Shown here: positions 2,941 to 40,692 of the stretch, in pieces
Layout: every line of letters begins with the position of its first letter
Numbering within the stretch: position 1 is the stretch's first letter
DNA from: an uncultured Cytophagia bacterium
Lineage (GTDB): Bacteria; Zhuqueibacterota; Zhuqueibacteria; Residuimicrobiales; Krinioviventaceae
Assembly: GCA_964399735.1 (NCBI GenBank)
Contig: CAYNSO010000002.1
Span: 77,440 to 141,439, forward strand
Reading direction: 5' to 3'
DNA length: 64,000 nucleotides
Position numbers and translations under genes: made by a program
Notes under the pieces: generated by a model
What the model saw: only the letters and a program-made list of their open reading frames with translations
Told to the model about the DNA's origin: nothing
The model's database searches: none

Positions 2941-3097
2941 CTGTTTTCCAGAGAAAAATGATAATATCATCCACCATACCGGAAACAATGTTAATTATTT
3001 TCCAGATGGATATGATCTGCCGGGTTTAAAAAATACAGATAATGTAAAGGTAAAGGCTTGCCATTTGGCAGTCCTTTACCTTTAACACAAAATCCTC

Positions 3098-4195: not shown

Positions 4196-4519
4196 TATAA
4201 ATGCCTCCAGTTAAGTATAAAAAAAAATCCGAATGTGAGCAACGCTCCTGAAACAAGGAACTTACCCTCAGACATTCGGACATATCATTAGGTAAACCTT
4301 TACATCGTTAAAGTTATGCGTATATCAATTTAGTTAATATCCGCTGTTTTTATTTAATATACATCACAAAACTAAATAAAATCTTTAACGAACGTTTATA
4401 GGCTTACTCCTGTTAACAACTTTTAATTTAACAAACAAAATTACAAATTAATAAAAAAAGAGTCAAGTCTTTTTTATTAATACATTTAAACATTATTGCG
4501 CTTTCTTGAGCGCTAAAAA

Positions 4520-5881
4520 TTAAACTGCGGCTTGTCGCAAAAGTTCCTGCATGGATTTAATATAATAATCCAACTCTTCGCGGGTTCGCTTTTCAGTTAC
4601 AGTACATAGATAACAATTATCGAGCCGCAAAAATTTATCGCGCAAAGAAATTCCGGCAAATATCTTTTTTTTCAGCATCTGGTCGAGAATATTATCGACA
4701 GAATATTCAGGGGCAATTTCAATAACAAATTCTTTAAACCAGGGCTGGGCAAATTTTACCTTTAATCCTTCAATTGCAGATAACTGTTGCGCCAGGTAAT
4801 GACTTTTTTGCAGGCATAAATTGGCAACTGCCGGTAAACCGATTTTGCCCATCAACGACATATAAACCGTAGCAGCCAGTGCATTCAATCCTTGATTTGT
4901 ACAAATGTTCGAAGTTGCCTTTTCCCTGCGAATATGCTGTTCCCGGGTTTGCAATGTAAGCACATAGCCGGTTTTACCATTCTTGTCTTCAGTTTGACCT
5001 ACAATTCGTCCCGGCATAAAACGTACCAGTTCTTTTTTAACAGCGAACAAACCCAGGTATGGGCCGCCAAAACTGACAGGGTTGCCAAGCGCTTGTCCTT
5101 CTCCGGTTACAATATCGGCTCCATAAACGCCTGGCGGTTCCAAAATAGCCAAAGAAATGGGATCGTTGGAGGTGACGTACAATGCACCGTGCTTGTGAAC
5201 GAGTTCTGAAATCTCAAAAACTTGTTCAAGGCATCCGAAATAATTGGGGTGCTGAATGATTACTGCGGCAGTTTTTTCGGAAAGGTGTTTCTCCAGGTCT
5301 TGCAGATCCAAAACACCGTCTTGCCAATCAATTGTGCGAATGATTATTTCGCGCCCTTGAGTATAAGTTTTGATAACCTGCAAATAATTTGGATTAATCG
5401 TCGCTGCAACAAGGATTTCCTTGCGCCCGGTAAACCCGCAAGCTAACAACGCAGCTTCTGCCAGGGCTGAGCCGCCATCATATACGGAAGCGTTGGCAAC
5501 ATCCATACCGGTAAGCTCGCAAATCATGGTCTGGAATTCATAAATACATTGCAAGGTACCCTGGCTGACTTCAGGTTGATACGGCGTATATGCTGTGTAA
5601 AATTCAGGGCGTGAAATAATATGTTTAACAGCCGCAGGAATAAAATGATCATAAGCGCCGCCGCCTAAAAAACAGAGATTATCATCGCAATTGGCATTCT
5701 GTGCCGCCAAACCGCTTAAATGTTTCATCACTTCCATTTCGGATAATGGAGCCGGTAACTTTAATTCACCTTGAAACAATAGTTCGGCGGGGATATTACC
5801 GATCAAGTCAGTAAAAGAATGAATGCCAATTTTTTCAAACATTTCCTGTCGATCGGCTTGTGTATTGGGAACAAAACCCAT
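4520..5881 (-). CDS. gcvPA: glycine dehydrogenase (decarboxylating) subunit 1
   Basis: 453 aa. Characteristic GcvPA N-terminus (ADRQEMFEKIGI...GELKLPAPLSEMEVMKHL) and the PEVSQG...YEFQTMICELTGMDVANASVYDG region. Confidence 0.9.
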   Translation of the reverse strand: MGFVPNTQADRQEMFEKIGIHSFTDLIGNIPAELLFQGELKLPAPLSEMEVMKHLSGLAAQNANCDDNLCFLGGGAYDHFIPAAVKHIISRPEFYTAYTPYQPEVSQGTLQCIYEFQTMICELTGMDVANASVYDGGSALAEAALLACGFTGRKEILVAATINPNYLQVIKTYTQGREIIIRTIDWQDGVLDLQDLEKHLSEKTAAVIIQHPNYFGCLEQVFEISELVHKHGALYVTSNDPISLAILEPPGVYGADIVTGEGQALGNPVSFGGPYLGLFAVKKELVRFMPGRIVGQTEDKNGKTGYVLTLQTREQHIRREKATSNICTNQGLNALAATVYMSLMGKIGLPAVANLCLQKSHYLAQQLSAIEGLKVKFAQPWFKEFVIEIAPEYSVDNILDQMLKKKIFAGISLRDKFLRLDNCYLCTVTEKRTREELDYYIKSMQELLRQAAV

Positions 5882-5901
5882 AAAAACCTCAAATTTACAA
5901 A

Positions 5902-6279
5902 TTACTTGCTTTTATTTTTGTATGCTTCGGCGGTTAACAGATTATTTAATTCTGATTCTGCGGTCATTTTAATTTTAATCATCCAGCCTTCGCCATAGGG
6001 GTCCTTGTTTACAATTTCCGGTGCAGAATTAAGTTTGGAATTCACTTCAATAATGGTGCCGGAGACTGGCGCAAAAAGATCGGAAACCGCTTTAACAGCC
6101 TCGATCGTACCAAAAGCATCCATCTGGTTCACAGCTGTATTGGTTTGTGGCAATTCAATAAAAACAATATCGCCCAGTTCTCCCTGTGCGTAATCGGTAA
6201 TGCCGACTGTAACTGTGTCGCCATTTACAGCAACCCATTCATGTTCTTCGGTATACTTGAAATTTTCAGGAACAAGCAT
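5902..6279 (-). CDS. gcvH: glycine cleavage system H protein
   Basis: EHEWV...GITDYAQ...IEAVKAVSDLFAPVSG lipoyl-lysine region. The preferred start is the internal Met MLVPENFKY, which is preceded by AAGGAGGA. The ORF-track start at 6306 would overlap accC. Confidence 0.85.
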   Translation of the reverse strand: MLVPENFKYTEEHEWVAVNGDTVTVGITDYAQGELGDIVFIELPQTNTAVNQMDAFGTIEAVKAVSDLFAPVSGTIIEVNSKLNSAPEIVNKDPYGEGWMIKIKMTAESELNNLLTAEAYKNKSK

Positions 6280-24336: not shown

Positions 24337-25797
24337 CTAAACATTCTCTGTCGAAACCGGTAAAAACACAGAAAATTCAGAGCCAGCGCCAATTTTACTA
24401 TTGACTTCAATCCGCCCATTATGTATTTCAACCAGTTGTTGAACCAGTGAAAGCCCTAAACCGGAACCATTGATATTACGAACTTGTTCATTATCTGTAA
24501 CACGGTAAAACTTTTTAAAAATATTTTGCAAATCCTTTTCGGGAATTCCAAAACCCTGATCCTTGACCCGGAAAATGGCATGGTCATTTTCAACAGTTAA
24601 ATGCAATTCAATTTGGGTTGTATCGGGGCTATACTTGATGGCATTTGAAAACAAGTTTAATATGATCTGTTCCATCATACCGTTATCTGCCCAAACAAAC
24701 ACCGGAATATCCGGTTCCTTGAAATCGACGACAATTTCTTTTTGCGCAGCCAGATAAGCATTGTTACCAATCACCATTTGTACAGTTTCAGCCAAATCCA
24801 CTTTGGCTTTTTGTGGCTGAATTCGTCCGGATTCAATTCGTGAAATATCCAGAAATTTATTAATCAACTCTCCGAGCCTGGTAGATTCGTTCAGAATAAT
24901 TTCAGCATAATCATTCGCTTGTTCCTTCTCAAGATCCGGATCAAGCAACAGTTCGCTAAAGCCGCAAATGCTCGTGAGCGGAGAGCGCAACTCGTGTGCG
25001 ACCATGGAAACCAGTTCAGTTTTCATGCGATCAATTTCTTTTTGCTGGGTAATATCACGTAATATCGTGACAATTCCGATCAGTCCTTCGGTTTCATGCA
25101 AGACCCGTGCGGCATTGGCCTGAAGAGTTATCGGCTTCCAGTTGGCCTTTTCTTTAATCTCAATTTCTGTAGAAGGAAGCTCGGTAAAATTATTTTCCGT
25201 GGCTTCCTGGATCAAATATAACAACTTTTGTTCAGTAATAAATTCACTGATCGTTTTATCAACAGCTTCACCTTCCTGCAGACCGAACCATTTTTCAGCA
25301 GTAGAATTTAGAATAAGCACTTTTAAATGAGGGTCGGTAACGATTACCCCGTCGGCAATATTTTTAATGATCGTTTGCGTTTTGTTGCGTTCAGCAATTA
25401 TTTGCGCCAGGTTCATTTCGTGCAGACGGCGTATTTCTGTGGTCATATAATTAAATAATTTGGCCAGTTTCCCAATTTCATCATCTGAACTGACATTGAT
25501 CTTGTGAGAAAATTTTCCCCTGGCTATTTCTGTGGCGCTACGGGTAAATTCAGCAATCGGAGTTGTGATATAGTGAGAAATATAAAAAGCGACCAGACCG
25601 GCCAAAACCAATGCAAATAAAATAATTGTAAAAATAATCACGATTATTGACCAGGCGCTATTTCCTGCGCCCAGATACCCGTTGGCCAGGGCTAAAACAG
25701 TCAAAGTAATAACAGGAATCATGGTAGCGCTCATGATTGCCAATAATAATTTTCGGAACAGTTTGCTTTTTATTTGTTGACTAAACCAGTTTGTCAT
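24337..25797 (-). CDS. sensor histidine kinase (2 TM, HAMP, PAS, HisKA, HATPase_c)
   Basis: HAMP segment DDEIGKLAKLFNYMTTEIRRL. H-box MVAHELRSPLTSI. N, G1 and G2 boxes (LFSNAIKYS, DQGFGIP, GSGLGLS). Confidence 0.88.
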   Translation of the reverse strand: MTNWFSQQIKSKLFRKLLLAIMSATMIPVITLTVLALANGYLGAGNSAWSIIVIIFTIILFALVLAGLVAFYISHYITTPIAEFTRSATEIARGKFSHKINVSSDDEIGKLAKLFNYMTTEIRRLHEMNLAQIIAERNKTQTIIKNIADGVIVTDPHLKVLILNSTAEKWFGLQEGEAVDKTISEFITEQKLLYLIQEATENNFTELPSTEIEIKEKANWKPITLQANAARVLHETEGLIGIVTILRDITQQKEIDRMKTELVSMVAHELRSPLTSICGFSELLLDPDLEKEQANDYAEIILNESTRLGELINKFLDISRIESGRIQPQKAKVDLAETVQMVIGNNAYLAAQKEIVVDFKEPDIPVFVWADNGMMEQIILNLFSNAIKYSPDTTQIELHLTVENDHAIFRVKDQGFGIPEKDLQNIFKKFYRVTDNEQVRNINGSGLGLSLVQQLVEIHNGRIEVNSKIGAGSEFSVFLPVSTENV

Positions 25798-25805
25798 TAA
25801 ATATT

Positions 25806-26789
25806 TTATCCTTCATCAATTACCTGATTTTTTCCATTTGCTTTTGCTATATATAAACGCCGGTCGGCGCATTCGAGCAATTCTTCACCGGTTGTGCCAT
25901 TAAGCGGAAAAGTAGAAACACCTGCGCTGATCGTAATCTTGCTGTTTAGACGGGTATTGTCAATATTAAATTGACAATTATCAACCAGATCTTTGAGTTT
26001 GTTGGCGACAATTTTACCGGCCCTTTTATCGGTTTCCGGGAAAATAATGGCAAACTCTTCACCCCCATAGCGAGCCGCTGTATCAATGCTGCGAATATTA
26101 CGGTTGATCAGGTCGCTAATGGTACGTAAAACCTGATCACCGGCCAGATGCCCAAAAGTATCATTATAATTCTTGAAATAATCAATATCAAACATCATAA
26201 GAGAAAATTGCGAATTGTTACGCCGGGCGCGTTCAATTTCTTTGGCAAGAGTGTCTTTAAAATAACGATAATTATAAATATTGGTCAAACCGTCTTTGGT
26301 TGCCAACTCGTGTAATATTTCTTTGGTTTCTTCCAGTTGTTTAACTTTTTCCTGCAGCTGGTCGTGTAGATATTTTATCCGTAACAGTGATTTTACACGG
26401 GCAAGCAGTTCATGTTTATTAACAGGTTTAGTAATATAATCATCAGCGCCCGATTCAATGCCCTTGATCTTGTCTTCTACTTCATTCAAGGCAGTTACCA
26501 ATATAACAGGAATATAAAAAGTTTCTACATTATTCTTGATCATCTGACAGGTATCAAAACCATTCATGCCGGGCATCATAATATCAAGCAATACAAGATC
26601 AGGTTTTATTTCTTCAATCAACTGGATAGCATTATTACCAGAATTAGCGACGGTTAATTCATATTCCGGCGCTAAAAAAGACTTTAATACAGTGATATTC
26701 GCACGAGTATCGTCGACAATCAATATATGCGCTTTTGGAGATGGATTGTTATTAACAGTTTTTTTTGGCATTGCCTGTGTCAAATTCAT
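25806..26789 (-). CDS. response regulator with GGDEF diguanylate cyclase output domain
   Basis: Receiver domain (ILIVDD...DLVLLDIMMPGMNGF) followed by a GGDEF domain with an intact RYGGEEF active site. Confidence 0.88.
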   Translation of the reverse strand: MNLTQAMPKKTVNNNPSPKAHILIVDDTRANITVLKSFLAPEYELTVANSGNNAIQLIEEIKPDLVLLDIMMPGMNGFDTCQMIKNNVETFYIPVILVTALNEVEDKIKGIESGADDYITKPVNKHELLARVKSLLRIKYLHDQLQEKVKQLEETKEILHELATKDGLTNIYNYRYFKDTLAKEIERARRNNSQFSLMMFDIDYFKNYNDTFGHLAGDQVLRTISDLINRNIRSIDTAARYGGEEFAIIFPETDKRAGKIVANKLKDLVDNCQFNIDNTRLNSKITISAGVSTFPLNGTTGEELLECADRRLYIAKANGKNQVIDEG

Positions 26790-28362: not shown

Positions 28363-30027
28363 TTATAATAAAAGCGCCGCCCGTGAAAAGCATGCCAGAC
28401 TTTCCTGAATCCGCGGGTCATGGACTACCGCTGCACGGATTGTACCTTCCAACCCCCATAATATATAAGCGATTTCCTGCATTATTGCCTGTTTTATTTG
28501 CTGATTCAAGTGAGAATCCAGGGCAGGATTATTACCGATCTTTGCCATCCGATAAAATTCAGCAAGCATTTTATCAGTTACCGAGAATTCAGAGAAAAAA
28601 GAATCTATTTCTGTTTTTAGATCGGGATTATTTTGCACCAATTTTTCAGCATAATTGAGAAAAATATTTTGGGCATATAAATCTCTTACCATTTTTGTAA
28701 TGCCAGCCGTTTCAACCTGTGTAATAATGTCAGGCCGCAAGCCATTTCCTTCATAGATTATACGGCCCTGGGGGGTTTTGAATTCACGCCATTGCTGATT
28801 ATCACGGGCAGCAGTTGATGATTCAGCAGGCTTTGCCGGGGTCAAACCGGATACATTGCGTCCGATCATTCGGCCCAGCGGAGTATAATAATTTGCAGTA
28901 GTTAATAACAAAGCTGAGCCATCCGGAAAAAGAAATTCAGTTTGCACACAGGCTTTTCCAAAAGTAACTTCCCCAAACAGCAGTCCTCTATCCCAATCCT
29001 GTATAGTGGCGGCAAACATTTCCGCAACACTGGCTGTTCCGGCATTAACCAAAACCACCAGGGGAATTTGTGAACAGGCAGGCAAATCACTCGAAATATA
29101 CTTTTGATTGTCTTGCGGGGTTTTGCCACGTGTAGTTACCAGAATTTTGCCCTGAGATATAAATCGGTCAGCCACCTGAACACCGGCAAGCAGGGAGCCG
29201 CCGCTGTTATCCCTCAGATCCACAAGCAGTTGTTTCATACCACGGGCAAGCAAATGGGAACAAGCATTATCGAGTTCTGCCGGGGTTGTGCTCACAAAAT
29301 GCGAAATGTTGATATAGCCGGTAGTATTGTTTATCATAAAGAAGCAGGGTATGCTTTTAATATTAATAAAAGCCCGGTTTAACGTATACAAGCGGGTCTC
29401 ATTTCCTGAACGGCCGATTAAAATTTTAACCAGTTCATTTTCACTTTTAGCTAACAGGTTTTGAACTTGTATTTCTGTTAAAAGGGCAGTTGGCCGGTCA
29501 TTAATTTTTAAAATAATATCGCCAACTAGCAACCCGGCTTTATATGCCGGACTATTATCGCTTATACCAATAATAATATATTGATTCTTGTGGAATTCAA
29601 AACGAATACCAAGACCGATATACCCCTGGTATTTGCTTTCTCTATCCCGATATTCCTCTGCGGTTAAATATACTGAATATTCATCCAGACCGGCCAACAT
29701 ACCATGAATGGCGTTTTTTAATAACATATCAGAATCAATTTCAGAAATGTAATTGCGTTCAATTTTATCCAGGATCATAGTAAGTATCATCCAGCGGTTA
29801 TATACCTTTTGAGCGCTGTAAGCGAGATGCCGTTGAATTCCGGTAAAAGCAATTAAAACAATAATTGATAAAATCAATAAATATATGAATTTAAAACAGT
29901 ATTTTTTCACAGCGAATATCCCATATTTTTTTTTCTTAAAGCAATAAATTAATGGCGCCTGGTTCTTTATGATTCTAATTATACACAATTCGGTGTATAA
30001 TAAAGTTTCAAAAAATGCAATAATCAC
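28363..30027 (-). CDS. S41-family C-terminal processing peptidase (PDZ domain)
   Basis: PDZ segment GLLVGDIILKINDRP. Catalytic Ser in RDNSGGSL and Lys in TFGKACVQTE. The true start may be the internal GTG at 29910 (VKKYCFKFIY...), because a TATAAT-like box lies between that codon and the ATG at 30027. Confidence 0.8.
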   Translation of the reverse strand: MIIAFFETLLYTELCIIRIIKNQAPLIYCFKKKKYGIFAVKKYCFKFIYLLILSIIVLIAFTGIQRHLAYSAQKVYNRWMILTMILDKIERNYISEIDSDMLLKNAIHGMLAGLDEYSVYLTAEEYRDRESKYQGYIGLGIRFEFHKNQYIIIGISDNSPAYKAGLLVGDIILKINDRPTALLTEIQVQNLLAKSENELVKILIGRSGNETRLYTLNRAFINIKSIPCFFMINNTTGYINISHFVSTTPAELDNACSHLLARGMKQLLVDLRDNSGGSLLAGVQVADRFISQGKILVTTRGKTPQDNQKYISSDLPACSQIPLVVLVNAGTASVAEMFAATIQDWDRGLLFGEVTFGKACVQTEFLFPDGSALLLTTANYYTPLGRMIGRNVSGLTPAKPAESSTAARDNQQWREFKTPQGRIIYEGNGLRPDIITQVETAGITKMVRDLYAQNIFLNYAEKLVQNNPDLKTEIDSFFSEFSVTDKMLAEFYRMAKIGNNPALDSHLNQQIKQAIMQEIAYILWGLEGTIRAAVVHDPRIQESLACFSRAALLL

Positions 30028-30227: not shown

Positions 30228-30256
30228 TTGACATTTTCAATGTTTGGAATTATCTT
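30228..30256 (+). promoter_or_regulatory. sigma70-like promoter (TTGACA-17-TATCTT) for ligase-like/EF-G-like operon
   Basis: Perfect -35 TTGACA at 30228-30233, a 17-nt spacer, and TATCTT at 30251-30256. About 65 nt upstream of the TTG start at 30321. Confidence 0.45.
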
Positions 30257-30320: not shown

Positions 30321-31877
30321 TTGGGGACTCTGGTAGAACTATTAAAAAATACGGCTGTGCAATTACCAAAACAAACTGCTCTGATTTTTGGTGAAAACAG
30401 GATTGATTATGGTCTATTGCTTGAAGCCTCGAAAAGGCTTGCCGGTGGGTTATCGGCGCTTGGAATTCAGAAAGGAGATCGGGTTGCACTTATGCTGCCC
30501 AATGTGCCACATTTCTGTATTTCGTATTTTGGAATCCTCGAAATTGGGGGCATTGTTGTTCCTGTTAATATTATGAGTAGTAGAGAAGAAATTCAGCACC
30601 AGTTAAAAGACAGCGGCGCTTCGGCAATGATAACCTGGAGCGGCTTTCAAAACCTGGCTATTGTTCTGAAAGAAATGTGCCCGGAATGCAAAAATATATT
30701 ATTCCTTGGCGACAACATCCCAACAGGAACACTGGCGTTGACTCGAGTAATATCGGAATCGCAACCACTTGAGACCGAAATTGAAATCAATGAAACAGAT
30801 ATTGCAGTGATCAACTATACAACCGGAATTGCCGATGTTCCGCTTGGCGCTGAATTAACACACAGTTCGCTTTATTCCAATGCAATCACCTGCAGTGAAA
30901 TGTTCCGCTTTACACCTGAAGATAAGATGCTGGCTGTTTTACCTCTTTTTCATCCACTCGGTCAAACGCTGGTAATGAACAGCTCTTTTTCGCGTGGTTG
31001 TTCAGTTGCTTTAATGCCAAGATACTCCCCGGATGAAATCATACAGACAGTTAATAGTCATAAAATCACTTTTATGGCCGCAGTACCCGGTATATTTACA
31101 AATTTGATTGAAGACACCCAGGAAGCGCAGTTACCCTCATTAAAATATTGTATGAATTATGGTGGTAAATTACCTCAGGAAGTGATTGATGTATTTGAGG
31201 AAAAGTACCATGCCGTTATTCTACAAGCGTATGGATTAACCGAAGCAGGGCCGCTGGTAACATCGGTTCGGTTAGATAGCGACAGAAAAGCAAATTCGGT
31301 CGGTCTGCCATTAATGGGTGTAGAAATCCAGATTCGTGATGATCGTGGAAACCAGTTACGCCCCTTTCAAAGTGGAGAAATTTGGACTAAAAGTCAAAAT
31401 ATTATGAACGGCTATTATAACAAACCGGAAGAAACCAGGAAAAGACTGCAAAATGGCTGGCTTTTCACCGGCGATGTTGGGTATATTGACGACAATCATT
31501 ATTTATATGTGCAGGAACGAAAAGAAAATATTATTGTTAAAGGTGGTTTTATAATATTTCCTCATGAAGTAGAAAAAGTGTTGTTGGAACATGCGGATGT
31601 TATGGAAGCTGCTGTAATTGATGTCCCGGACGATGTCCAGGGTTCAGAAGTAAAAGCCTATGTCGTTTTAAAAGACGGAAAAAATTTAATGCCGGATGAA
31701 TTGATAAAATTTTGCCGCCATACTTTACCTGTTTATAAAACTCCAAAATATATTGAATTTTGTGCCAGTATCCCCAAGAGCCCAACCGGCCGAGTATTAA
31801 AAAGAGTTTTGCGCAAGAACTCTATTCATTACCGATCCGGCAATGAGGATAAAAAGTTTAAGGAAAATAAAGTTTGA
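30321..31877 (+). CDS. AMP-dependent synthetase/ligase (acyl-CoA synthetase-like) family protein with degenerate adenylation motifs
   Basis: 518 aa with a TTG start preceded by AAGAGGAAA. Conserved A5 (YGLTEAG) and A7/A8 (FTGDVGYIDDNHYLYVQERKENIIVKGG) motifs. The P-loop is YTTGIADVPLGAELTH instead of YTSGTTGxPKG. The A10 motif is PKSPTGRVLKR, with Arg where the catalytic Lys is expected. Confidence 0.8.
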   Translation: MGTLVELLKNTAVQLPKQTALIFGENRIDYGLLLEASKRLAGGLSALGIQKGDRVALMLPNVPHFCISYFGILEIGGIVVPVNIMSSREEIQHQLKDSGASAMITWSGFQNLAIVLKEMCPECKNILFLGDNIPTGTLALTRVISESQPLETEIEINETDIAVINYTTGIADVPLGAELTHSSLYSNAITCSEMFRFTPEDKMLAVLPLFHPLGQTLVMNSSFSRGCSVALMPRYSPDEIIQTVNSHKITFMAAVPGIFTNLIEDTQEAQLPSLKYCMNYGGKLPQEVIDVFEEKYHAVILQAYGLTEAGPLVTSVRLDSDRKANSVGLPLMGVEIQIRDDRGNQLRPFQSGEIWTKSQNIMNGYYNKPEETRKRLQNGWLFTGDVGYIDDNHYLYVQERKENIIVKGGFIIFPHEVEKVLLEHADVMEAAVIDVPDDVQGSEVKAYVVLKDGKNLMPDELIKFCRHTLPVYKTPKYIEFCASIPKSPTGRVLKRVLRKNSIHYRSGNEDKKFKENKV

Positions 31878-31926
31878 TATGCAATTCCATATTATTTAAC
31901 AAATAGATTGAAACAGGAGGACAACA

Positions 31927-34008
31927 GTGAAAGAATTTAGTCCTAAAGAAATCCGTAACATTGCACTTGTATCACATCAATCTGCCGGGAAAACAACTCT
32001 GGCAGAAGCTTTTGTATTTTCTGCCGGAGAAACCACCCGTCTTGGCACAATAGATGAAGGCACCACGACTTCTGATTTCCGGTCTGATGAAATTGAACGT
32101 AAAATATCTATCAGCGCCTCATTGTTGAATTTTGAGTGGAAAAAATCAAAAATTAATCTTGTTGATATTCCAGGTTATTTAGATTTTTTTGGTGAAGTGA
32201 TTAGCGGTTTACGGGTTAGCGATTTGGCGGTAGTTTTAATAAACGGTGTATCTGGAATTGAAGTAGGAACTGATTTTGCCTGGGATATTCTGGAAAAAGA
32301 TAAAATTCCCGCAATTATTTTTGTCAATTTTTTAAATAAAGAACATACCAGCTTTGAAAAATCAGTCAAGTCAGCCAAAGAAGCCTATGGCAATAATGTT
32401 ATCACATTCCAGTTCCCTGTTACCGAAGGTGAAGGTTTTAAAAGTATCATCGATTTACTACGTATGAAAAAAATTACATTCAACACCGACCAAAGCGGTA
32501 AATACACCCAGGAAGATATTCCTGCTGACTTGCAACAAAAAGCCGAAACTTTACGCAATGAATTGATTGAAAAAGTTGCTGAATGCGACGACGCGCTTTT
32601 GGAAAAATATTTTTCAGATGGTGAGTTGTCCGAGGATGAAATTGTTCTTGGTATCAAAAAGGGCTTGTTGAACAGAAACATTTTCCCGGTCTTTTGCGGC
32701 GCCGCCAATCAGAACATTGGTTCTCATTTGTTGCTTGATTTTATTGCCGATTTTGGCCCCTCACCGGTAGATCGTTCACCGATTGCGGCTTTTGATAAAG
32801 AAAACAAAGAAACGAATGTCAATGTTGATGAAGAAGAGCCTTTTACTGCGCTAGTTTTCAAAACAATCTCTGAAATGCATGTTGGCGAACTATCACTCAT
32901 CAAGGTTTATTCCGGCAGCGTCAAGTCAGGTGATGAAGTTTTCAATACAGCAAACAACTCTACAGAAAAAATTGGTCAGATCTATTCATTAAACGGCAAA
33001 AATCGCAAGGAGATTGGTGTTTTAAAAACCGGTGATATTGGCGCCCTGGTGAAATTGAGAAATACACATACCAGCAACACCTTGACAGATAAAAGAAATC
33101 CTGTAAAATTTGCTGAAATTGAATTCCCCGAACCGGTTGTAGAAATTGCCGTTACCCCGAAAAGCAAAGGGGATGAAGATAAAATATCCAGCGGCTTACA
33201 TACCTTGCATGAGATTGACCCCAGCTTTACTGTACGTATCGATCCGGAACTGAAACAAACAGTTGTTGCCGGTCAGGGTGAAATGCACCTGACGATTATT
33301 CTTAAAAGATTAAAAGAACGCTATTCAGTAGATGTTGAACAAAAGAAACCAAAAATTCCCTATCGCGAAACAATTACCGCAAAAGCTGATGAGAAATACC
33401 GCCATAAAAAACAATCTGGTGGCGCCGGTCAGTTTGCTGAAGTATGGATGAGAATAGAACCCCAGCCGCGTGGTCAGGGCTTTGAATTTGCCAGCGCAGT
33501 TGTTGGTGGAGCAATCTCTTCATCATTCATCCCTTCAATTGAAAAAGGAGTACAGCAGGTTTTGGTAGAAGGCGCTGTAGCGGGCTATAAAATTGTCGAT
33601 GTAAAAGCCGTGGTGTATGACGGTAAAGAGCACCCGGTCGATTCAAAAGATATTGCTTTCCAGATTGCAGGTCGTGAAGTCTTTAAAATGGCCATGAAAA
33701 GCGCAAAACCCATTCTACTCGAACCCATTTATAACGTAGAAATTCGTTGCCCGGAAGAATATATGGGCGATGTTATGGGCGATCTCTCCAGCCGGCGTGG
33801 TAAAATATCAGGAATGGAAATGCTAGGCCGGTTCCAGGTTGTCAAGGCCCAGGTTCCTTTGGCTGAATTGCATAATTATGCAACAACATTGCGATCACTA
33901 ACCCAGGGACGAGCAACCCATTCCCGTCGGTTATCGCATTATGATCCACTACCCAAAGAACTGGAATCCAAGGTTATTGAGGAATCGCTGGAAGAAAACA
34001 ATAAATAA
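31927..34008 (+). CDS. elongation factor G paralog with degenerate GTPase motifs
   Basis: 693 aa with a GTG start preceded by GGAGG. Collinear with EF-G domains I-V. G1 is SHQSAGKTT. G3 is DIPGYLDF (canonical DTPGHVDF; the catalytic His is Tyr). G4 is FVNFLNKEH (canonical FVNKMDR; NKxD is lost). The C-terminal domains are well conserved (HKKQSGGAGQFAEV, LLEPIYNVEI). Confidence 0.85.
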   Translation: MKEFSPKEIRNIALVSHQSAGKTTLAEAFVFSAGETTRLGTIDEGTTTSDFRSDEIERKISISASLLNFEWKKSKINLVDIPGYLDFFGEVISGLRVSDLAVVLINGVSGIEVGTDFAWDILEKDKIPAIIFVNFLNKEHTSFEKSVKSAKEAYGNNVITFQFPVTEGEGFKSIIDLLRMKKITFNTDQSGKYTQEDIPADLQQKAETLRNELIEKVAECDDALLEKYFSDGELSEDEIVLGIKKGLLNRNIFPVFCGAANQNIGSHLLLDFIADFGPSPVDRSPIAAFDKENKETNVNVDEEEPFTALVFKTISEMHVGELSLIKVYSGSVKSGDEVFNTANNSTEKIGQIYSLNGKNRKEIGVLKTGDIGALVKLRNTHTSNTLTDKRNPVKFAEIEFPEPVVEIAVTPKSKGDEDKISSGLHTLHEIDPSFTVRIDPELKQTVVAGQGEMHLTIILKRLKERYSVDVEQKKPKIPYRETITAKADEKYRHKKQSGGAGQFAEVWMRIEPQPRGQGFEFASAVVGGAISSSFIPSIEKGVQQVLVEGAVAGYKIVDVKAVVYDGKEHPVDSKDIAFQIAGREVFKMAMKSAKPILLEPIYNVEIRCPEEYMGDVMGDLSSRRGKISGMEMLGRFQVVKAQVPLAELHNYATTLRSLTQGRATHSRRLSHYDPLPKELESKVIEESLEENNK

Positions 34009-34029
34009 ATCAACTTATTGTACAAGTAA

Positions 34030-34056
34030 AAGGCACGGTAAAACCGTGCCTTTTTT
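34030..34056 (+). terminator. rho-independent terminator after EF-G paralog
   Basis: Hairpin AAGGCACGG-TAAAA-CCGTGCC followed by TTTTTT. Confidence 0.75.
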
Positions 34057-34124: not shown

Positions 34125-34622
34125 GTGGAAAAAATATGGGCGCCCTGGCGGATCGACTATATATTACAGCCAAAACCCAAGGGCTGCATTTTTTGCGATA
34201 AACCCAAAGAAAACAATGACAGACAAAATCTGATTTTATACCGCGGTTCGTTATGTTTTATCATTATGAATTTTTATCCGTATAATAACGGGCATATCAT
34301 GATAATCCCCTATCGTCATCTTTCTCAATTATCATTGCTGACAACTGAAGAACAAACCGAAATGATGAAACTTTTGGGAAGTAGCTGTACAATTCTGCAA
34401 AAAGTAATGTCGCCCGATGGTTTTAATATCGGTATGAATTTGGGTAAGGTTGCCGGTGCAGGCATTGATGACCACCTGCACTTTCACATAGTGCCGCGTT
34501 GGAATGGCGATACCAATTTTATGCCGGTAACCGGACATACCAAAGTTATATCACAGGGATTATACGAATCCTGGGATCAATTGCACCCGTTATTTCAAGA
34601 AATGAATGATCCCAACCGCTAA
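34125..34622 (+). CDS. HIT-family (histidine triad) nucleotide hydrolase/transferase
   Basis: 165 aa with a GTG start preceded by GGAG. N-terminal WAPWRIDYI with a CIFCD zinc-knuckle-like motif, and the HIT motif HLHFHIVPR. Confidence 0.8.
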   Translation: MEKIWAPWRIDYILQPKPKGCIFCDKPKENNDRQNLILYRGSLCFIIMNFYPYNNGHIMIIPYRHLSQLSLLTTEEQTEMMKLLGSSCTILQKVMSPDGFNIGMNLGKVAGAGIDDHLHFHIVPRWNGDTNFMPVTGHTKVISQGLYESWDQLHPLFQEMNDPNR

Positions 34623-34628
34623 ACGCAT

Positions 34629-35408
34629 TTACCTTTCTTCAGCCTTTACACGATCCCACACTTGATCCATTTCTGCCAGAGACGCTTGCGTCATCACCAC
34701 TCCCCTGTTTTTAAAATCTTGCTCAACTTTTCTAAAACGCCGGTCAAACTTGTTGATTGTTTTTCGCAGCGCGTCTTCAGGATTGACCTTTAAAAAGCGG
34801 GCAAGATTTACAATCGTAAATAATAAATCTCCCAATTCGTCTTCTATTTCATCCTGTTTTCCCTGTTTACAGGCATTTTTCAGTTCGTCCATCTCTTCAT
34901 TAACTTTATCCCATACCGGTTCAATACTGTTCCAGTCAAACCCGGCAGTTGCAGCTTTATTTTGTGTCCGGTAAGCTCTCACCAAAGCCGGTAGTTGCCG
35001 GGGAACGCCGTCTATTGCTGATTTTTTACCCTCTTTATTGATTTTAGTCTGTTCCCAGAGGATGATCTGCTCAGCTGCTGTTTCTACAACCAGATTACCA
35101 AAAACATGTGGATGACGGCGAATCAGCTTTTCATTAATTTGATCGAGCACCGTTCCAATGTCAAAGCGGTTATCTTCTGCAGCTACTTGTGCATGAAAAA
35201 TGACCTGTAATAATAAATCACCCAATTCCTCCGGTAATTTTTCATAATGCTCATCATCAATAGTTTCTATAACCTCATAAGCCTCTTCAAGCAAATGCTG
35301 ACGTAAGGATGAATGGGTCTGTTCCCTGTCCCAGGGACAACCTTGCGGGCTACGCAAAGTTGCCATTATCTCTACCAGCTTGCAAAATTTTGATTCCACA
35401 GATTCCAA
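34629..35408 (-). CDS. mazG: nucleoside triphosphate pyrophosphohydrolase
   Basis: 259 aa with two MazG domains: RSPQGCPWDREQTHSSL...EEAYEV...EELGDLLLQV, and a second EEMDEL...ELGDLLFTIVNLARF. Confidence 0.88.
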   Translation of the reverse strand: MESVESKFCKLVEIMATLRSPQGCPWDREQTHSSLRQHLLEEAYEVIETIDDEHYEKLPEELGDLLLQVIFHAQVAAEDNRFDIGTVLDQINEKLIRRHPHVFGNLVVETAAEQIILWEQTKINKEGKKSAIDGVPRQLPALVRAYRTQNKAATAGFDWNSIEPVWDKVNEEMDELKNACKQGKQDEIEDELGDLLFTIVNLARFLKVNPEDALRKTINKFDRRFRKVEQDFKNRGVVMTQASLAEMDQVWDRVKAEER

Positions 35409-35690: not shown

Positions 35691-35942
35691 ATGAAACCAG
35701 CTGAACCGCGACAATTTAATTACCAGTTTCGCTATTATAAACCGGACGATGAAGACCAAAAAAAAATACAATTTCGTCGCATACGAAAAAGCAATCCGCC
35801 CCAAAAAGTATCTTCATTACGAATTACAGTGATACTGGTGATTGTTGTTGTTATCGCATTTTTATTATTTCGTAAAGCTCCTGATTTCTTTACCCCCTCC
35901 CAGGATAACGTGACTTTGGAAGAAATCCAGGTGGTGGAATAG
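35691..35942 (+). CDS. hypothetical small single-pass membrane protein
   Basis: 83 aa. Basic N-terminus, one transmembrane helix (ITVILVIVVVIAFLLF) and a weak RBS. Sits immediately upstream of, and co-directional with, the adenylate cyclase gene. Confidence 0.4.
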   Translation: MKPAEPRQFNYQFRYYKPDDEDQKKIQFRRIRKSNPPQKVSSLRITVILVIVVVIAFLLFRKAPDFFTPSQDNVTLEEIQVVE

Positions 35943-35998: not shown

Positions 35999-37474
35999 TT
36001 GCCCGGGAAGTTATCCAAAATGTGGTCTAACCTGAGTAAAAAATATTTTCAGTTGAAATGGAAATTTGCTTCATTGCGAATACGCTTTAAACTGATTATT
36101 ATTATTGGTTTGTTATTTATTGGACTCTATACGATTCTGAGTTTTATCATCCTTTACCAGGGCAAACAAATTCTAAATAAACGACTGGAACAGACCTGTG
36201 ATCTATCCTTGCAACATCTTTCACAAATTATCAAAGATGACCTGTTGTTATATTATGACCATGAAACAGATCAGGATGTTAATTCGGAACACCTGGGGCA
36301 TATTCGTGAAGCAATATTCAATATTTCCAATGAAAAAATTGAAGGCCTTGAATATGCCGGAATCATTGACCGGAATGGTATGTTCCTTGCCTTTATGGAC
36401 ACTGAAAAAAAACTGCAAACCCCTGATACTGCCGAACCAAATAAAGATCTGTATGAAAACCTGACGGAAAAACAAACCCGCGAAATAGATGATATAATAG
36501 AATACATCCTGCCAATCACTGCAAAAGGCGCTGCCAACAATCAAATTTATCTTGGCGTTACAGTGTTGGGATTTTCAAAAGAAATAATTATGCAGCCCAT
36601 TAAACAAGCCACGCAAATGTTGATTATTCTATCTGTTTTTGTAATCGTTATTTCCGTAGGTGCAATTTCTTTTGTTGCCCAAAGGATGACTCGGCAAATT
36701 GACCAACTTTCCCTGGCGGTTCGCAAGTTGAGCAAAGGCGAACTGGACGTAGACATTCCAATTCTGTCTAATGATGAACTGGGGCAATTTTCACGGGAAT
36801 TTAATACAATGATCACCCATTTGCGTGAAAAACTGCAAATGCAAAAATTTATATCCAAACTCACTGTCCAAATGATCCGTAATGGCTCTATTGCCGAGTT
36901 ACCCCCGGAAGGAGAAAAAAGGCAGGTAGCAATTGTTTTTACCGATGTACGGAATTTTACTTTATTGACCGAACGACTGGGAGCAGAAGAAATTGTAAAA
37001 TTAATCAACATATATCATGATTTACAGGCAGATATAATCGACCAACATAATGGTTTTGTTGACAAATTCAATGGCGACCAGGTTATGTCGATATTTATCG
37101 GCAAATCACTTGCCGATGATGCAGTACAGGCTGCGGTAGAGATCCAGAAATCAATAAAATTACTAAATAAAAAAAGAGCGGCGGAAGGTAAAGTAACCCT
37201 GACAGTCGGTTGCGGAGTGAATATTGGCGAAGCAATATTGGGAAAAATGGGCGCTAAATCACGGTTGGATTATACAGTAATTGGTGATGTGGTTAATGTT
37301 GCCTCCCGTTTGTGTTCAATTGCCAAACCCGGCCAAATTCTGGCCTCTGAATTAATCGCTTCAAAAATTAATAATGATTATCCCAAAATCAAACTGGAAC
37401 CGGTAATCGTTAAAGGGAAAAGAGACCCGATTTCAATTGTTGACATTGATTATGAACAAGTATTTATTATGTAA
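35999..37474 (+). CDS. membrane-bound class III adenylate/guanylate cyclase with periplasmic sensor and HAMP domain
   Basis: Two transmembrane helices flank a ~150-aa extracytoplasmic region. HAMP segment (QIDQLSLAVRKLSKGELD...). Cyclase homology domain: VAIVFTDVRNFTLLTERLG...KFNGDQVMSIF...TVIGDVVNVASRL. Confidence 0.85.
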   Translation: MPGKLSKMWSNLSKKYFQLKWKFASLRIRFKLIIIIGLLFIGLYTILSFIILYQGKQILNKRLEQTCDLSLQHLSQIIKDDLLLYYDHETDQDVNSEHLGHIREAIFNISNEKIEGLEYAGIIDRNGMFLAFMDTEKKLQTPDTAEPNKDLYENLTEKQTREIDDIIEYILPITAKGAANNQIYLGVTVLGFSKEIIMQPIKQATQMLIILSVFVIVISVGAISFVAQRMTRQIDQLSLAVRKLSKGELDVDIPILSNDELGQFSREFNTMITHLREKLQMQKFISKLTVQMIRNGSIAELPPEGEKRQVAIVFTDVRNFTLLTERLGAEEIVKLINIYHDLQADIIDQHNGFVDKFNGDQVMSIFIGKSLADDAVQAAVEIQKSIKLLNKKRAAEGKVTLTVGCGVNIGEAILGKMGAKSRLDYTVIGDVVNVASRLCSIAKPGQILASELIASKINNDYPKIKLEPVIVKGKRDPISIVDIDYEQVFIM

Positions 37475-37495
37475 AACGAAAGGCTGTATAAACAA

Positions 37496-39757
37496 ATGAA
37501 AATCAGGTTCTACAGCCTTTTGCTTATGTGGTTTGCAGCACATTCCATACTCCATGCCCAGCAGGAACTGGTATCTTTCTCGCCAGGTGCAAAATCGATT
37601 GGTTTGGGTAGAACCGGCGTGATAGATGTATATGACCCATCTGCACTCTATTGGAATCCGGCGGCTCTTGGAAATATTAATAAACACCAAACTCTATTTT
37701 CAATTCACCAGCCCTTTCATTTAAATTATTCCGCCTATTCTCATTTCATACCCAAAGTAGGTTCTCTGGCAATGAGTATGGCACAAACAGATATGGGCAA
37801 AGCAGGGATTGAGTTGTACAGCGTTGGTTTGGGGAAAAGACTGAATGAGTATCTTTATGCCGGTTTTGCATTCAACAATGTAATACTGGAATCTGAAAAC
37901 TGGGTAACAAGCGGCATTGGTCTTTTGATCAAACCTGAATCAACCGCATATTACCGTCATAACCCTTCAAGTTTACCGGGCTTGTTGGGGTCTCCCCTGA
38001 TTCGTGATCGCCTGACCCTGGGAATAAGCATTCAAAATATTCCCCTTACAGATACTTATTACGACCATGTGAGCAGGTTTGGCGCTTCTTACACATTTAC
38101 CAAGGATGGCTTTAAAATCCTCTTTGCTCAACACATAAAAAGAGGCAACGATTCTTCTCACCTTGGTTTGGTAATTCCAGTTCACAAGAATTTTCAATTC
38201 TTTGCCGGTATCAAGGATTATCTATTTAACAAAACAGCAATGGGAACAGAGATAACCTTTAATAATATTAACCTGCATTTTGTTTATGATTATGACTTGA
38301 AGCGAATTCTTTTTTCAACAGCCATTCGGCTTGGCTCAGCCGGAATAACTCTTGCAGAAGAAGAATATGCGCGCGCACAGAAAAAGTACACCGAGGGCGA
38401 TCAGCAAAAAGCCTTACAATTCAGCAAACGGTCGCTGGAATATAATCGCGACCATAACAAAGCCGCGGAAATGGTAACCAGCCTTGAACCGGTTATTGAA
38501 CAGAACAGAAAAAAAATTAACTTACTAATAAAAGCCGGTAAAATCCTGGAATCCAGAGAGTACTATATCAGCGCAGCCACTCAATATATGCAGGTTTTAA
38601 AAACAGACCCGGACAACAAAACCGCGCAAATTGCTTTAAACAGAATCAGCCCCAGGGTTACAATTCATACTGAACGCCGTTACAACCTCGGAGTTAACAG
38701 TTTTGAAAATAACGATCTGATCAGTGCAAAAAACATTTTTGAATCCATCCTGCTGGTAAGGCCTGACCACTCCGGTTCAAAACAATACCTGGCAAGAATT
38801 AACGACCTGTTATTTTCCCAGGCGGAAAATCATTTTTTTACCGGTCTTGGTTATTACAGCCAGAGAAAACTGGACGAAGCGGAAAAAGAGTTTCAAAATT
38901 CATTAGAGCTAATGCCGAGCTATTTTGAATCCCGCGAATACCTGAATCGGATAGCTGAAGACAGAATTAATAACTTGAAACGGATCGAACGGCTGCTGGA
39001 TGAAGCCAATAGTCTTGAAGAAAAAAAATCATGGTATTTGGCGCGGGAAAGATACCGGCAAATTCTGGAAATCGATCCGACCCACAACCTGGCGCAAAAA
39101 AAACTGGGCGAAATGGAAATCGTGCTAACGGATTATATAAATGAGCAGCTTATAAAAGGCGAATCACTCTATAATAGTCAGAACTATAATGCTGCACAAA
39201 ATATTTTTACCAATATTCTGCAAATGCAGCCGGGTAATGCCAGGGCAACACGTTATTTATCATTAATCACGGAAAAAAGCAGTGGTAAATCAACAAAGCA
39301 CTATGAAAATGCTCAAAATTTATATAACCAGGAGAACTGGAAAGCCTCACTGGCCGCAATTGATTCCGCTTTAAAAATAAATCCGCGTTTTGCTAAAGCC
39401 ATACAACTAAAAAATAAGCTGCTAAAAATGCTCAATGTGGAACAAATGCTGGAAAATGCTAAAAGTGAATTTGTCCAGGAAAACTATATTCAGGCAATGG
39501 AGCATTTTAACCAGGTTTTAGAAAAGGATCCGCAAAACAACCAGGCTTTAAATTACCTGGACCAATGTCAAAAAAAACTATCGGAAAAAGTGGACGAATA
39601 CTTTAACAAGGGTCTTGAATTATATTCCAGAGAAAATTATCGCTTGGCAATTCAATACTGGCAAAAAGCTCTGGAAATCAATCCCTATCACAAAGGTTCC
39701 ATTGAATACAGTAAAAGAGCTACGGAACGCTTAAAAGCATTGGAAAGGTTGCAATAA
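37496..39757 (+). CDS. outer-membrane beta-barrel (PorV/PorQ-like N-domain) fused to C-terminal TPR-repeat region
   Basis: 753 aa. Signal peptide ending HAQQ. SPGAKSIGLGRTGVIDVYDPSALYWNPAALG shares the signature of the 3098-4195 protein. Roughly residues 280-753 are TPR/Sel1-like helical repeats. Confidence 0.7.
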   Translation: MKIRFYSLLLMWFAAHSILHAQQELVSFSPGAKSIGLGRTGVIDVYDPSALYWNPAALGNINKHQTLFSIHQPFHLNYSAYSHFIPKVGSLAMSMAQTDMGKAGIELYSVGLGKRLNEYLYAGFAFNNVILESENWVTSGIGLLIKPESTAYYRHNPSSLPGLLGSPLIRDRLTLGISIQNIPLTDTYYDHVSRFGASYTFTKDGFKILFAQHIKRGNDSSHLGLVIPVHKNFQFFAGIKDYLFNKTAMGTEITFNNINLHFVYDYDLKRILFSTAIRLGSAGITLAEEEYARAQKKYTEGDQQKALQFSKRSLEYNRDHNKAAEMVTSLEPVIEQNRKKINLLIKAGKILESREYYISAATQYMQVLKTDPDNKTAQIALNRISPRVTIHTERRYNLGVNSFENNDLISAKNIFESILLVRPDHSGSKQYLARINDLLFSQAENHFFTGLGYYSQRKLDEAEKEFQNSLELMPSYFESREYLNRIAEDRINNLKRIERLLDEANSLEEKKSWYLARERYRQILEIDPTHNLAQKKLGEMEIVLTDYINEQLIKGESLYNSQNYNAAQNIFTNILQMQPGNARATRYLSLITEKSSGKSTKHYENAQNLYNQENWKASLAAIDSALKINPRFAKAIQLKNKLLKMLNVEQMLENAKSEFVQENYIQAMEHFNQVLEKDPQNNQALNYLDQCQKKLSEKVDEYFNKGLELYSRENYRLAIQYWQKALEINPYHKGSIEYSKRATERLKALERLQ

Positions 39758-39939: not shown

Positions 39940-40692
39940 ATGTCTGCAAAAATCAGTGATACTGCCATAAGAAAAATAGCAGCCGCAAAACGGATTGGTG
40001 TTTTAACAGGAGCCGGCATTTCTGCGGAAAGCGGAATACCAACATTTCGTGGTGATGATGGACTGTGGCAGCAGGTAAAACCGGAAGAATTAGCCAGCCC
40101 GGAGGGATTCTATAAAAATCCGCATTTGGTGTGGCAATGGTATGAATATCGGCGCAAAATGCTGAGTAAAGTGCAACCCAATGCCGGTCATTTGGTATTG
40201 GCTGAAATGGAAAAAAGCTATCCCGCTTTTACCATCAGCACACAAAATGTCGATGGCCTGCATATTCGCGCCGGCAGCAAGAATGTACTGGAATTGCATG
40301 GTAACATACTGGAAAACCGCTGTCAACACTGCCATAAAATAACTGCGGATGTTCATTATCAGGCTGGAGCAGAATTGCCGCAATGTGAATGTGGCGGATT
40401 AATTCGTCCGAATGTGGTATGGTTTGGTGAATCATTACCTAAAGAGTCGCTGGAACAATCTTTCACCATAGCGCGACAGTCAGATGTATATTTTTCAATA
40501 GGCACTTCAGCGTTGGTTTATCCGGCAGCTTTGTTGCCCCGTGAAGCCAGGCAGCATGGCGCTTATGTTATTGAGATCAACATCGAACAGACATCGCTAT
40601 CCAACTTTGTTGATGAATTCATTCCCGGAAAATCCGGGCAAGTGTTGCCGGTTTTATGGAATTCTGTAAAATCATTTATTAAAGAAAAGTAA
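39940..40692 (+). CDS. cobB: NAD-dependent protein deacylase (Sir2 family)
   Basis: 250 aa. GAGISAESGIPTFRG. Zn-ribbon CQHC...CECGG. The HG catalytic motif is ELHGN. Confidence 0.88.
   Translation: MSAKISDTAIRKIAAAKRIGVLTGAGISAESGIPTFRGDDGLWQQVKPEELASPEGFYKNPHLVWQWYEYRRKMLSKVQPNAGHLVLAEMEKSYPAFTISTQNVDGLHIRAGSKNVLELHGNILENRCQHCHKITADVHYQAGAELPQCECGGLIRPNVVWFGESLPKESLEQSFTIARQSDVYFSIGTSALVYPAALLPREARQHGAYVIEINIEQTSLSNFVDEFIPGKSGQVLPVLWNSVKSFIKEK

Follow-up and report, generated by a model that had tools for sequence, protein, structure and literature searches.

An operon-linked ANL-superfamily protein without its adenylation lysines accompanies an EF-G2-type elongation factor in KSB1/Calditrichota-type bacteria

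Introduction

A 64,000-nucleotide stretch of DNA from an uncultured Cytophagia bacterium (contig CAYNSO010000002.1 of assembly GCA_964399735.1; hereafter the window) carries two adjacent genes, one encoding an ANL-superfamily (acyl-CoA-synthetase-like) protein and the other a paralog of elongation factor G (EF-G). In KSB1/Calditrichota-type bacteria these genes belong to a conserved unit composed of the ANL gene, the EF-G2-like gene, a gene for a HIT protein of the diadenosine tetraphosphate (Ap4A) phosphorylase type, and a convergent MazG gene. The unit is therefore larger than the two-gene pair described in the initial annotation of this DNA. The peculiarities of the EF-G paralog are already explained by the literature on the EFG II subfamily. 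The ligase partner and its linkage appear to be undescribed: in the literature searched, no description was found of a degenerate ANL family or ANL pseudoenzyme, nor of an operon that joins it to an EF-G2-type factor and a HIT protein of the Ap4A phosphorylase type. The unit may be a stress or starvation translation module, a reading given a probability of about 0.5, in which an EF-G2-type factor would be joined by a non-adenylating ANL accessory protein, with HIT and MazG serving adenylate, Ap4A, and nucleoside triphosphate (NTP) housekeeping.

The ANL-like protein

The ANL-like protein (518 residues) is encoded at 30321-31877 on the forward strand, with a TTG start codon and an AGAGGA ribosome-binding site. 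It is matched by the Pfam domains AMP-binding (E 7e-81) and AMP-binding_C (1e-18), and it scores under every NCBIfam ligase cut-off, the best being NF004837 (416 against 476). A hidden Markov model alignment to solved structures placed its P-loop (motif A3) in the motif column without gaps; the YTSGTTGHPKG of FadD13 is replaced there by YTTGIADVPLG (residues 166-176; 30816-30848, forward strand; aligned with both FadD13 and MenE). The A10 motif is equally free of gaps and reads PTGRVLK where FadD13 has PTGKILK (residues 488-494), with Arg at residue 491 in place of the catalytic Lys (PTGRVLKR, 31782-31805, forward strand). No displaced Lys, Arg, or His was seen near the P-loop when the alignment was inspected. 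Motifs A4, A5, A7, A8, and A9 are kept in the structure alignment, and across the homologs A4, A5, A7, the A8 Arg, and the hinge are invariant. The retained A5 (YGLTEAG), A7 (FTGDVG), and A8 (ERKENIIVKGG) motifs, at 31230-31547 on the forward strand, contain the hinge as well as the residues that bind AMP, ribose, and Mg.

The same substitutions are found in about 85 homologs of the degenerate ligase, whose mean pairwise identity is 53%. The second Gly of the P-loop is replaced by an acidic residue in 82/85 (Asp in 72, Glu in 10), the P-loop Lys position is Leu or Met in 75/85, and the A10 residue is Arg in 84/85. Y304, G305, G384, D385, and R400 are invariant in this alignment. AlphaFold predicted a complete ANL fold with a predicted local distance difference test (pLDDT) score of 90.7 and a predicted template modeling (pTM) score of 0.88. 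The model superposes on ATP-bound MatB and ACSM2A with template modeling scores of 0.88-0.90 and adopts the adenylation-state conformation. The ratio of nonsynonymous to synonymous substitution (dN/dS) was calculated against L171, a relative 87-88% identical, and is approximate, as dS exceeds 1. It was 0.057 for the ANL gene, whose L171 ortholog is 88% identical, in line with the neighboring EF-G (0.046), HIT (0.056), and MazG (0.042) genes. This value, together with the confident predicted fold, rules out a decaying pseudogene. The substitutions are not due to chance or sequencing error, since they are kept across homologs and both genes are under strong purifying selection. Because the fold is kept together with the site for adenosine, ribose, and Mg, the phosphate loop has turned acidic and hydrophobic, and the catalytic Lys is gone, the protein probably no longer carries out ATP-dependent adenylation but may still bind an adenylate-like ligand.

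The A10 Lys of ANL enzymes is a classic target of acetylation and deacetylation. A gene for a SIR2-family protein deacetylase lies about 6 kb downstream (39940-40692, forward strand) and is syntenic in relatives L001 and L003. A functional link between this deacetylase and a ligase bearing Arg at A10 is speculative.

Linkage across relatives

In the nearest relatives (L001-L003 and L171) the ANL-EF-G-HIT order is present, often with the convergent MazG gene. The order is also found in KSB1 genomes with 62-69% identity in EF-G (L004-L006, L085, and L087), and in the L007 lineage, where EF-G identity falls to 57% and the genes are separated by 13-nt gaps or overlap by 4 nt. The gene pair noted in the initial annotation is thus syntenic down to this depth, with different flanks. 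Neighborhoods were counted over 78 dereplicated loci. An ANL gene was found 5' of the paralog in 33 of the 40 loci whose G4 motif has a residue other than Lys, versus 1 of the 23 with NKxD. Generic ANL loci served as a negative control, and none of 77 had an EF-G neighbor among the matches listed; a canonical ligase at 40% identity likewise had no EF-G link. When genomes were scanned with a profile built from the degenerate ligases, at least 600 rows came back, mostly generic ANL ligases; L005-L007 were informative, and the other 77 loci are those of the negative control. Pairwise identities of the encoded proteins co-vary between EF-G and ANL (r = 0.86) and between EF-G and HIT (r = 0.77).

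The HIT gene is the most widely conserved partner of the EF-G paralog. It lies directly 3' of the paralog in 47 of the 64 dereplicated loci with enough downstream flank, and overlaps it in L007 and L086. The convergent MazG arrangement also occurs in L003, L085, L087, L171, and several metagenome loci. Other arrangements were seen as well. One subclade labeled Caldithrix/KSB1 and nested in the ANL-linked clade (L092-L096, L099, and L102) has lost the ANL gene and kept the EF-G gene (with NRxD), HIT, and convergent MazG. In L123, the C-terminal half of an ANL protein (4-771) is encoded 3.2 kb 5' of the EF-G paralog (4001-6031), with inserted DNA in between.

A link between ANL and EFG II genes across phyla, by way of the mycobacteria, was considered and dropped: the genes there are convergent, their adjacency is not conserved, and mycobacterial ANL genes are abundant. 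One mycobacterium-type locus (L173, 6001-10260) contains an EF-G2 gene with frameshifted calls, at a distance of about 1.1 kb a convergent fadD-like gene for an AMP-binding protein, a gene for a thiamine pyrophosphate-dependent enzyme, and a LysR regulator gene, a layout matching that of fusA2/fadD7/oxcA/oxyS in Mycobacterium tuberculosis. On a second actinobacterial contig (L172) no ANL gene was found near EF-G2, and the proximity in L173 is probably a coincidence.

Order of the motif changes

The EF-G-linked ligases differ in how far their motifs have changed. In the L007 lineage the linked ligase is canonical, with YTSGTTGRPKG and the A10 Lys. Many of the linked ligases on deeper branches combine a TTG-K loop with Arg at A10. 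In L085 and L087 only the loop Lys is lost (TAGTTGPPLG), and the combined acidic and hydrophobic P-loop of the window ligase is confined to the KSB1 branch. On this branch the EF-G protein also changes, its G1 motif passing from GHGG to SHQS and its G4 position becoming variable. Since canonical ligases accompany this EF-G type on the deeper branches, the linkage is older than the motif loss, and the ligase degenerated afterwards and stepwise. The initial annotation had spoken of two co-transcribed pseudo-enzymes. The canonical catalytic residues are indeed absent from both proteins, but this description does not hold for the origin of the pair.

At least two further EF-G-linked ANL branches, in which the loop Lys or Arg is kept, acquired an acidic replacement of the second Gly on their own (VTE or VTD in L100, L103, L104, L106, and L107; TTD in L112 and L118). 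The replacement seems to recur as a trend and not to be an isolated event.

The EF-G paralog

The EF-G paralog (693 residues) is encoded at 31927-34008 on the forward strand, with a GTG start codon and an AGGAGG ribosome-binding site. Its reading frame and that of the ANL gene lie exactly where the initial annotation placed them. All five EF-G domains are present in Pfam matches (GTP_EFTU, EF-G_D2, EFG_III, EFG_IV, and EFG_C). The top family model is NCBIfam NF009381 (PRK12740.1-5), which the protein matches with 917 bits against a cut-off of 583; the same model ranks first for the homologs from L007, L113, and L164. The protein also formally passes the EF-G equivalog cut-off of TIGR00484 (695 against 659).

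The G-domain motifs lie within 31972-32337 on the forward strand: G1 SHQSAGKTT at 31972-31998, G2 RKISI at 32098-32112, G3 DIPGY at 32164-32178, and G4 NFLN at 32326-32337. In a gapless alignment with Thermus thermophilus EF-G they stand opposite AHIDAGKTT, RGITI, DTPGH, and NKMD, respectively, and G5 is GAANQN opposite GSALKN. As in the ligase, every cited substitution falls in its motif column. Inspection of the alignment found no displaced Lys, Arg, or His near G3. The NKEH which follows NFLN was considered as a shifted NKxD and ruled out, since D-[KR]-E-H is a family-wide segment that aligns without gaps.

The best 120 EF-G homologs, 61-100% identical, come from metagenome-assembled genomes (MAGs) labeled KSB1 or Calditrichota. 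The catalytic His is absent from all 120 (Tyr in 109, Arg in 9, Phe in 2), the NKxD Lys is kept in only 2, and the switch-I Ser is present in 120/120. GKT, DxPG, and this Ser are invariant across the paralog family. A wider view was obtained by an exhaustive cluster search of 1.84 billion representatives, with counts taken on the nearest 150 representatives of 50% clusters. Of these, 143/150 lack the His, 117/150 have Ser in G2, and 59/150 lack the G4 Lys; a canonical AHIDAGKTT/DTPGH sequence is not reached before rank 57. Basal relatives have GHGGxGKT in G1 and DTPGY in G3. EFG II is defined by relaxed G motifs, and in G2 it has Ser, or rarely Gly, for the Mg-coordinating Thr (Margus 2011, PMC3150367).

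These features place the EF-G paralog in EFG II/EF-G2, a known kind of factor, where it comes closest to the EF-G2 of Bacteroides. The Tyr in place of His, the Ser in place of Thr, and the P-loop without Asp belong to the ancestral hallmarks of EFG II/EF-G2. The view in the initial annotation that the His, the P-loop Asp, and RGITI had been specifically lost is thus not upheld. NKxD has been described as conserved in EFG II (Margus 2011, PMC3150367). This conservation is not truly defining, because the Lys is missing from 59/150 of the nearest representatives, which are of the EFG II type. The loss of NKxD, also presented as special, is accordingly frequent in the subfamily as far as the Lys is concerned, but the change from Asp to Asn (NFLN) is private to the window species, its nearest relative having NFMD. 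NxxN in G4 recurs in separate branches (P0053, P0064, P0082/85/90, P0099, and P0104; L113 and L119), and relaxed selection on the recognition of guanine seems a likelier cause than one isolated change.

Locus organization and flanking genes

The ANL and EF-G genes are separated by 49 nt (31878-31926, forward strand). The tight spacing in the initial annotation therefore stands, with its figure of 50 nt corrected. The spacer carries the AGGAGG ribosome-binding site, and a scan of it detected no terminator-like site. A promoter-like TTGACA-17 nt-TATCTT block is located 5' of the ANL gene (30228-30256, forward strand) and has 10/12 consensus matches. The sequence proposed as the promoter is thus present, but such hexamer matches occur at chance level (13 versus 12.8 in shuffles), and their statistics were dropped as support. 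Instead, a phylogenetic footprint was used: the block is kept in four relatives (among them L171, L003, and L116), and the surrounding intergenic DNA has diverged. The strong terminator placed near 34030 was confirmed as a 12-bp hairpin followed by a U-run (34028-34056, forward strand). The hairpin has a folding energy of -19.6 kcal/mol (z = -4.9), and none of 200 shuffles was equally stable; it is evident from the sequence and the fold, although an automatic terminator scan missed it. Scanned against Rfam, the operon and its 293-nt leader gave no family at threshold, only sub-threshold small RNA matches over the terminator, and therefore no riboswitch. The divergent open reading frame (ORF) on the other side of the leader encodes an S41 (Ctp-type) protease (28363-30027, reverse strand), whose longest form begins at GTG. 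Gene callers in L001 use a start about 40 codons further in (515 residues), and the intergenic length of 293 nt depends on which of these starts is the true one.

The gene which follows the EF-G paralog (34125-34622, forward strand) encodes a HIT-family protein, as the initial annotation had stated. More exactly, Pfam HIT and PDB matches identify a homolog of Ap4A phosphorylase (Rv2613c type), with the HLHFHIV triad at residues 117-123. The PDB matches include the Ap4A phosphorylase structures 3ANO/3WO5 (E 1e-36) and 6AF2 (6e-38). The convergent MazG-type NTP pyrophosphohydrolase gene (Pfam MazG) is found at 34629-35408 on the reverse strand.

Signaling genes flank the module at 24337-26789 (reverse strand) and 35999-39757 (forward strand), and their positions are kept in L003 and L171. 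They encode a PAS-HAMP histidine kinase, a response regulator with GGDEF, a HAMP class-III nucleotide cyclase, and a large TPR protein. An 83-residue ORF with a hydrophobic stretch and no Pfam match (35691-35942, forward strand) is called at the same position in L001, L003, and L171. In L007, the ANL/EF-G/HIT operon is directly preceded (2435-4889) by guaB, which encodes inosine monophosphate dehydrogenase with its CBS domains, and by a gene for a STAS-domain protein.

Proposed function and alternatives

From the anatomy, motif states, selection, linkage, and order of events described above, we infer the biochemical activities and physiological trigger of a stress or starvation translation module as follows. 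The EF-G paralog would retain ribosome and nucleotide binding, to judge from its GKT, DxPG, switch-I Ser, and domains II-V. The catalytic His is absent as in EFG II generally, and in this lineage the guanine-recognition residues of G4 have been given up as well. By analogy with the EF-G2 proteins of Bacteroides and mycobacteria, the paralog would most likely be a slow translocase, hydrolysis-poor or hydrolysis-independent, or a stress-specific ribosome factor. The ancestor of the ANL-like protein would have been a normal acyl-CoA synthetase already linked to the EF-G factor in an operon. On the KSB1 branch the loop for the ATP beta- and gamma-phosphates then became acidic and hydrophobic and the A10 Lys changed to Arg, with the AMP, ribose, and Mg motifs, the hinge, and the fold being kept. 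The present protein may be a non-catalytic accessory which binds acyl-adenylate, AMP, or coenzyme A (CoA), or it may be a half-reaction enzyme of the module. HIT and the convergent MazG would indicate a stress metabolism of adenylates, Ap4A, and the NTP pool. Ordinary fatty-acid activation and ordinary translocation are less plausible than a non-canonical role, regulatory or ribosome-associated, as suggested in the initial annotation.

Several points weigh against a module of this kind. The ANL association rests essentially on one clade of an unbootstrapped neighbor-joining tree, and in the window the strong terminator splits HIT from the first two genes. Arg at A10 is also found in most of the EF-G-linked ligases with a canonical P-loop, and it may be that this residue is tolerated and that some ligase chemistry is retained in the family. 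The T. thermophilus EF-G-2 has been reported to be an active GTPase despite its Tyr, and it also translocates. Tyr alone is therefore not enough to indicate a pseudo-GTPase, and the window protein may have kept GTPase activity. Compared with P0512, a Bacteroidetes-type representative of 718 residues, the window protein is without the 29-residue insertion in domain IV of the Bacteroidetes EF-G2 (gap after residue 513), and its mechanism may accordingly be a different one. In their 2023 study, Han and colleagues are said to have tied this insertion to the absence of GTPase activity in the Bacteroides thetaiotaomicron protein.

A more specific form of the proposal, which must be considered doubtful, treats the ANL-like protein as a dedicated non-adenylating partner of the EF-G2-type factor. 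Together with HIT they would make up a module not recognized before, in which ribosome protection, or translocation independent of hydrolysis, would be coupled to a signal carried by an adenylate, an acyl-adenylate, or Ap4A. That the EF-G G4 motif and the ANL P-loop and A10 eroded in parallel in one branch could then mean that the pair changed to a new ligand common to both, or that it came to be regulated by direct protein-protein contact. As a variant, the ANL protein without its P-loop might run only the thioester or adenylate half-reaction, and HIT might phosphorolyse the acyl-adenylate to ADP. A slightly better case, though still an unlikely one, can be made for a working acyl-CoA or acyl-AMP ligase with a variant site, where Arg serves for the A10 Lys and the loop fits ATP or another donor; the operon would then simply tie an EF-G2 stress factor to the activation of fatty or organic acids. 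The intact A5, A7, and A8 motifs and predicted fold, the adenylation-state conformation of the model, the strong purifying selection, and the many otherwise functional-looking EF-G-linked ligases in which Arg at A10 stands beside a canonical P-loop are all compatible with activity. However, ANL enzymes with the A10 Lys mutated to Arg are strongly impaired, the protein scores under every NCBIfam ligase cut-off, and a conserved Asp or Glu (82/85) with Leu or Met (75/85) would put negative charge at the beta/gamma-phosphate site that is hard to square with ATP.

It is about as doubtful as the dedicated-partner proposal that the genes have no functional connection, that the synteny was simply inherited in one lineage, and that the ANL-like protein has a metabolic or regulatory task peculiar to this lineage and unconnected with translation. 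All taxon-labeled loci are KSB1 or Caldithrix, the association is essentially that of one clade, some subclades (L092-L099) have dropped ANL and kept EF-G, HIT, and MazG, and in L123 the ANL gene is displaced by 3.2 kb. Against inherited order, the pair survives a complete change of flanks (L004, L007, and L085 versus the window) and is kept down to 52-57% EF-G identity, a depth typical of comparisons between phyla for canonical EF-G. The operon-like spacing (13-nt gaps and 4-nt overlaps), the co-divergence of EF-G and ANL (r = 0.86), and the erosion of nucleotide sites in both proteins on the same branch also speak against it. Least probable by far is that the EF-G-like gene encodes the main translocase as a sole, highly unusual fusA. 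Its score above the TIGR00484 cut-off and the public annotation as "elongation factor G" would agree with this, but its sequence lies inside EFG II space and the gene stands outside the rpsL-rpsG-fusA-tuf context. No such str operon was found within the 64-kb window, where the EF-G neighbors are the ANL, HIT, and MazG genes. Moreover, a single EF-G is always of the EFG I type, and EFG II is always accompanied by another EF-G (Margus 2011). A canonical fusA is presumably encoded elsewhere in the source genome.

Paralogs of the EF-G2 type are widespread, and what they do is understood for Bacteroides, Thermus, and mycobacteria but for few organisms in all. The conserved operon gives a concrete handle on what these factors respond to, and its partners suggest the status of adenine nucleotides, alarmones, or acyl-adenylates in starving cells. 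The ligase series, from canonical through loss of the Lys to the acidic loop, all under purifying selection, would represent a natural route from an ANL enzyme to a non-adenylating protein. If the link is one of co-regulation only, the result amounts to a refinement of annotation. The calls of "elongation factor G" and "AMP-binding protein" for these genes in KSB1/Calditrichota MAGs should not be taken as fusA and fadD.

Comparison with known systems

The two-domain fold of the ANL-like protein resembles that of long- and medium-chain acyl-CoA synthetases of the ANL superfamily (FadD13 from M. tuberculosis, 3R44; the PRK06187 subfamily; MatB, 4CL, and MenE), with about 30% identity. It differs from ordinary ANL ligases in its P-loop (TTGIADVPLG for TSGTTGxPKG), in the replacement of the A10 Lys by Arg, and in failing all curated cut-offs. 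Furthermore, its gene is operon-linked to that of a translation-factor paralog, which is true of 0/77 generic loci. The HIT protein aligns over its full length with M. tuberculosis Rv2613c (3ANO/3WO5), and in both the HxHxHxx triad is followed by VPRW. It scores under the cut-off of the Rv2613c-type equivalog family NF052622 (160.3 versus 290 bits), and Ap4A phosphorylase activity is predicted. Rv2613c itself is not known to be linked in the genome with an EF-G paralog.

With respect to EF-G, the window protein differs from canonical EFG I fusA products in all four motifs (DTPGH, RGITI, AHIDAGKT, and NKxD). It resembles the EFG II subfamily in its GHxxxGKT-type G1 without Asp, the Ser in G2, and the Tyr after DxPG. 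The EFG II of Margus has NKxD, whereas the window protein has NFLN and its close relatives N[R/L/H/F]xD. T. thermophilus EF-G-2 (1WDT/2DY1) has GHAGSGKTT, DAPGYGDF, and TKLD, and thus shares the Asp-less G1 and the Tyr; the window protein nevertheless scores lower to it (397 bits) than to the canonical T. thermophilus EF-G (595 bits). M. smegmatis EF-G2 (9K0Z/9K10), which has been reported to be without GTPase activity, likewise has Tyr after DxPG (DTPGYADF).

The best PDB match to the window G domain (7UVP) is the EF-G2 of B. thetaiotaomicron (FusA2, BT2167; 7UVP/8DMF; NF058620), from the same broad FCB-group neighborhood as the window organism. In this protein, too, three residues are missing, namely the catalytic His (DCPGS), the Lys of NKxD (NQLD), and the Asp of the P-loop, and its G2 (YGYSV) contains Ser. 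The domain-IV signatures YRHKKQSGGAGQF and YDGKxHPVDS are common to both proteins; in the window they appear as YRHKKQSGGAGQFAEVWM and YDGKEHPVDS (33415-33645, forward strand; BLASTP alignment with P0512). However, the residue after DxPG is Ser in the Bacteroides protein and Tyr in the window protein, and the latter scores 722.9 bits (in two stretches) against the NF058620 cut-off of 1000. Because the domain-IV insertion of about 26-29 residues is missing and the family cut-off is failed, the window protein is better regarded as a relative of the Bacteroidetes EF-G2 than as a member. Translation with the B. thetaiotaomicron EF-G2 is slow and GTP-independent, and carbon limitation induces this factor 238-fold (PMC10294740). 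Its gene has been described with its own Cur-dependent promoter, whereas the window EF-G gene is part of a cluster with ANL, HIT, and MazG.

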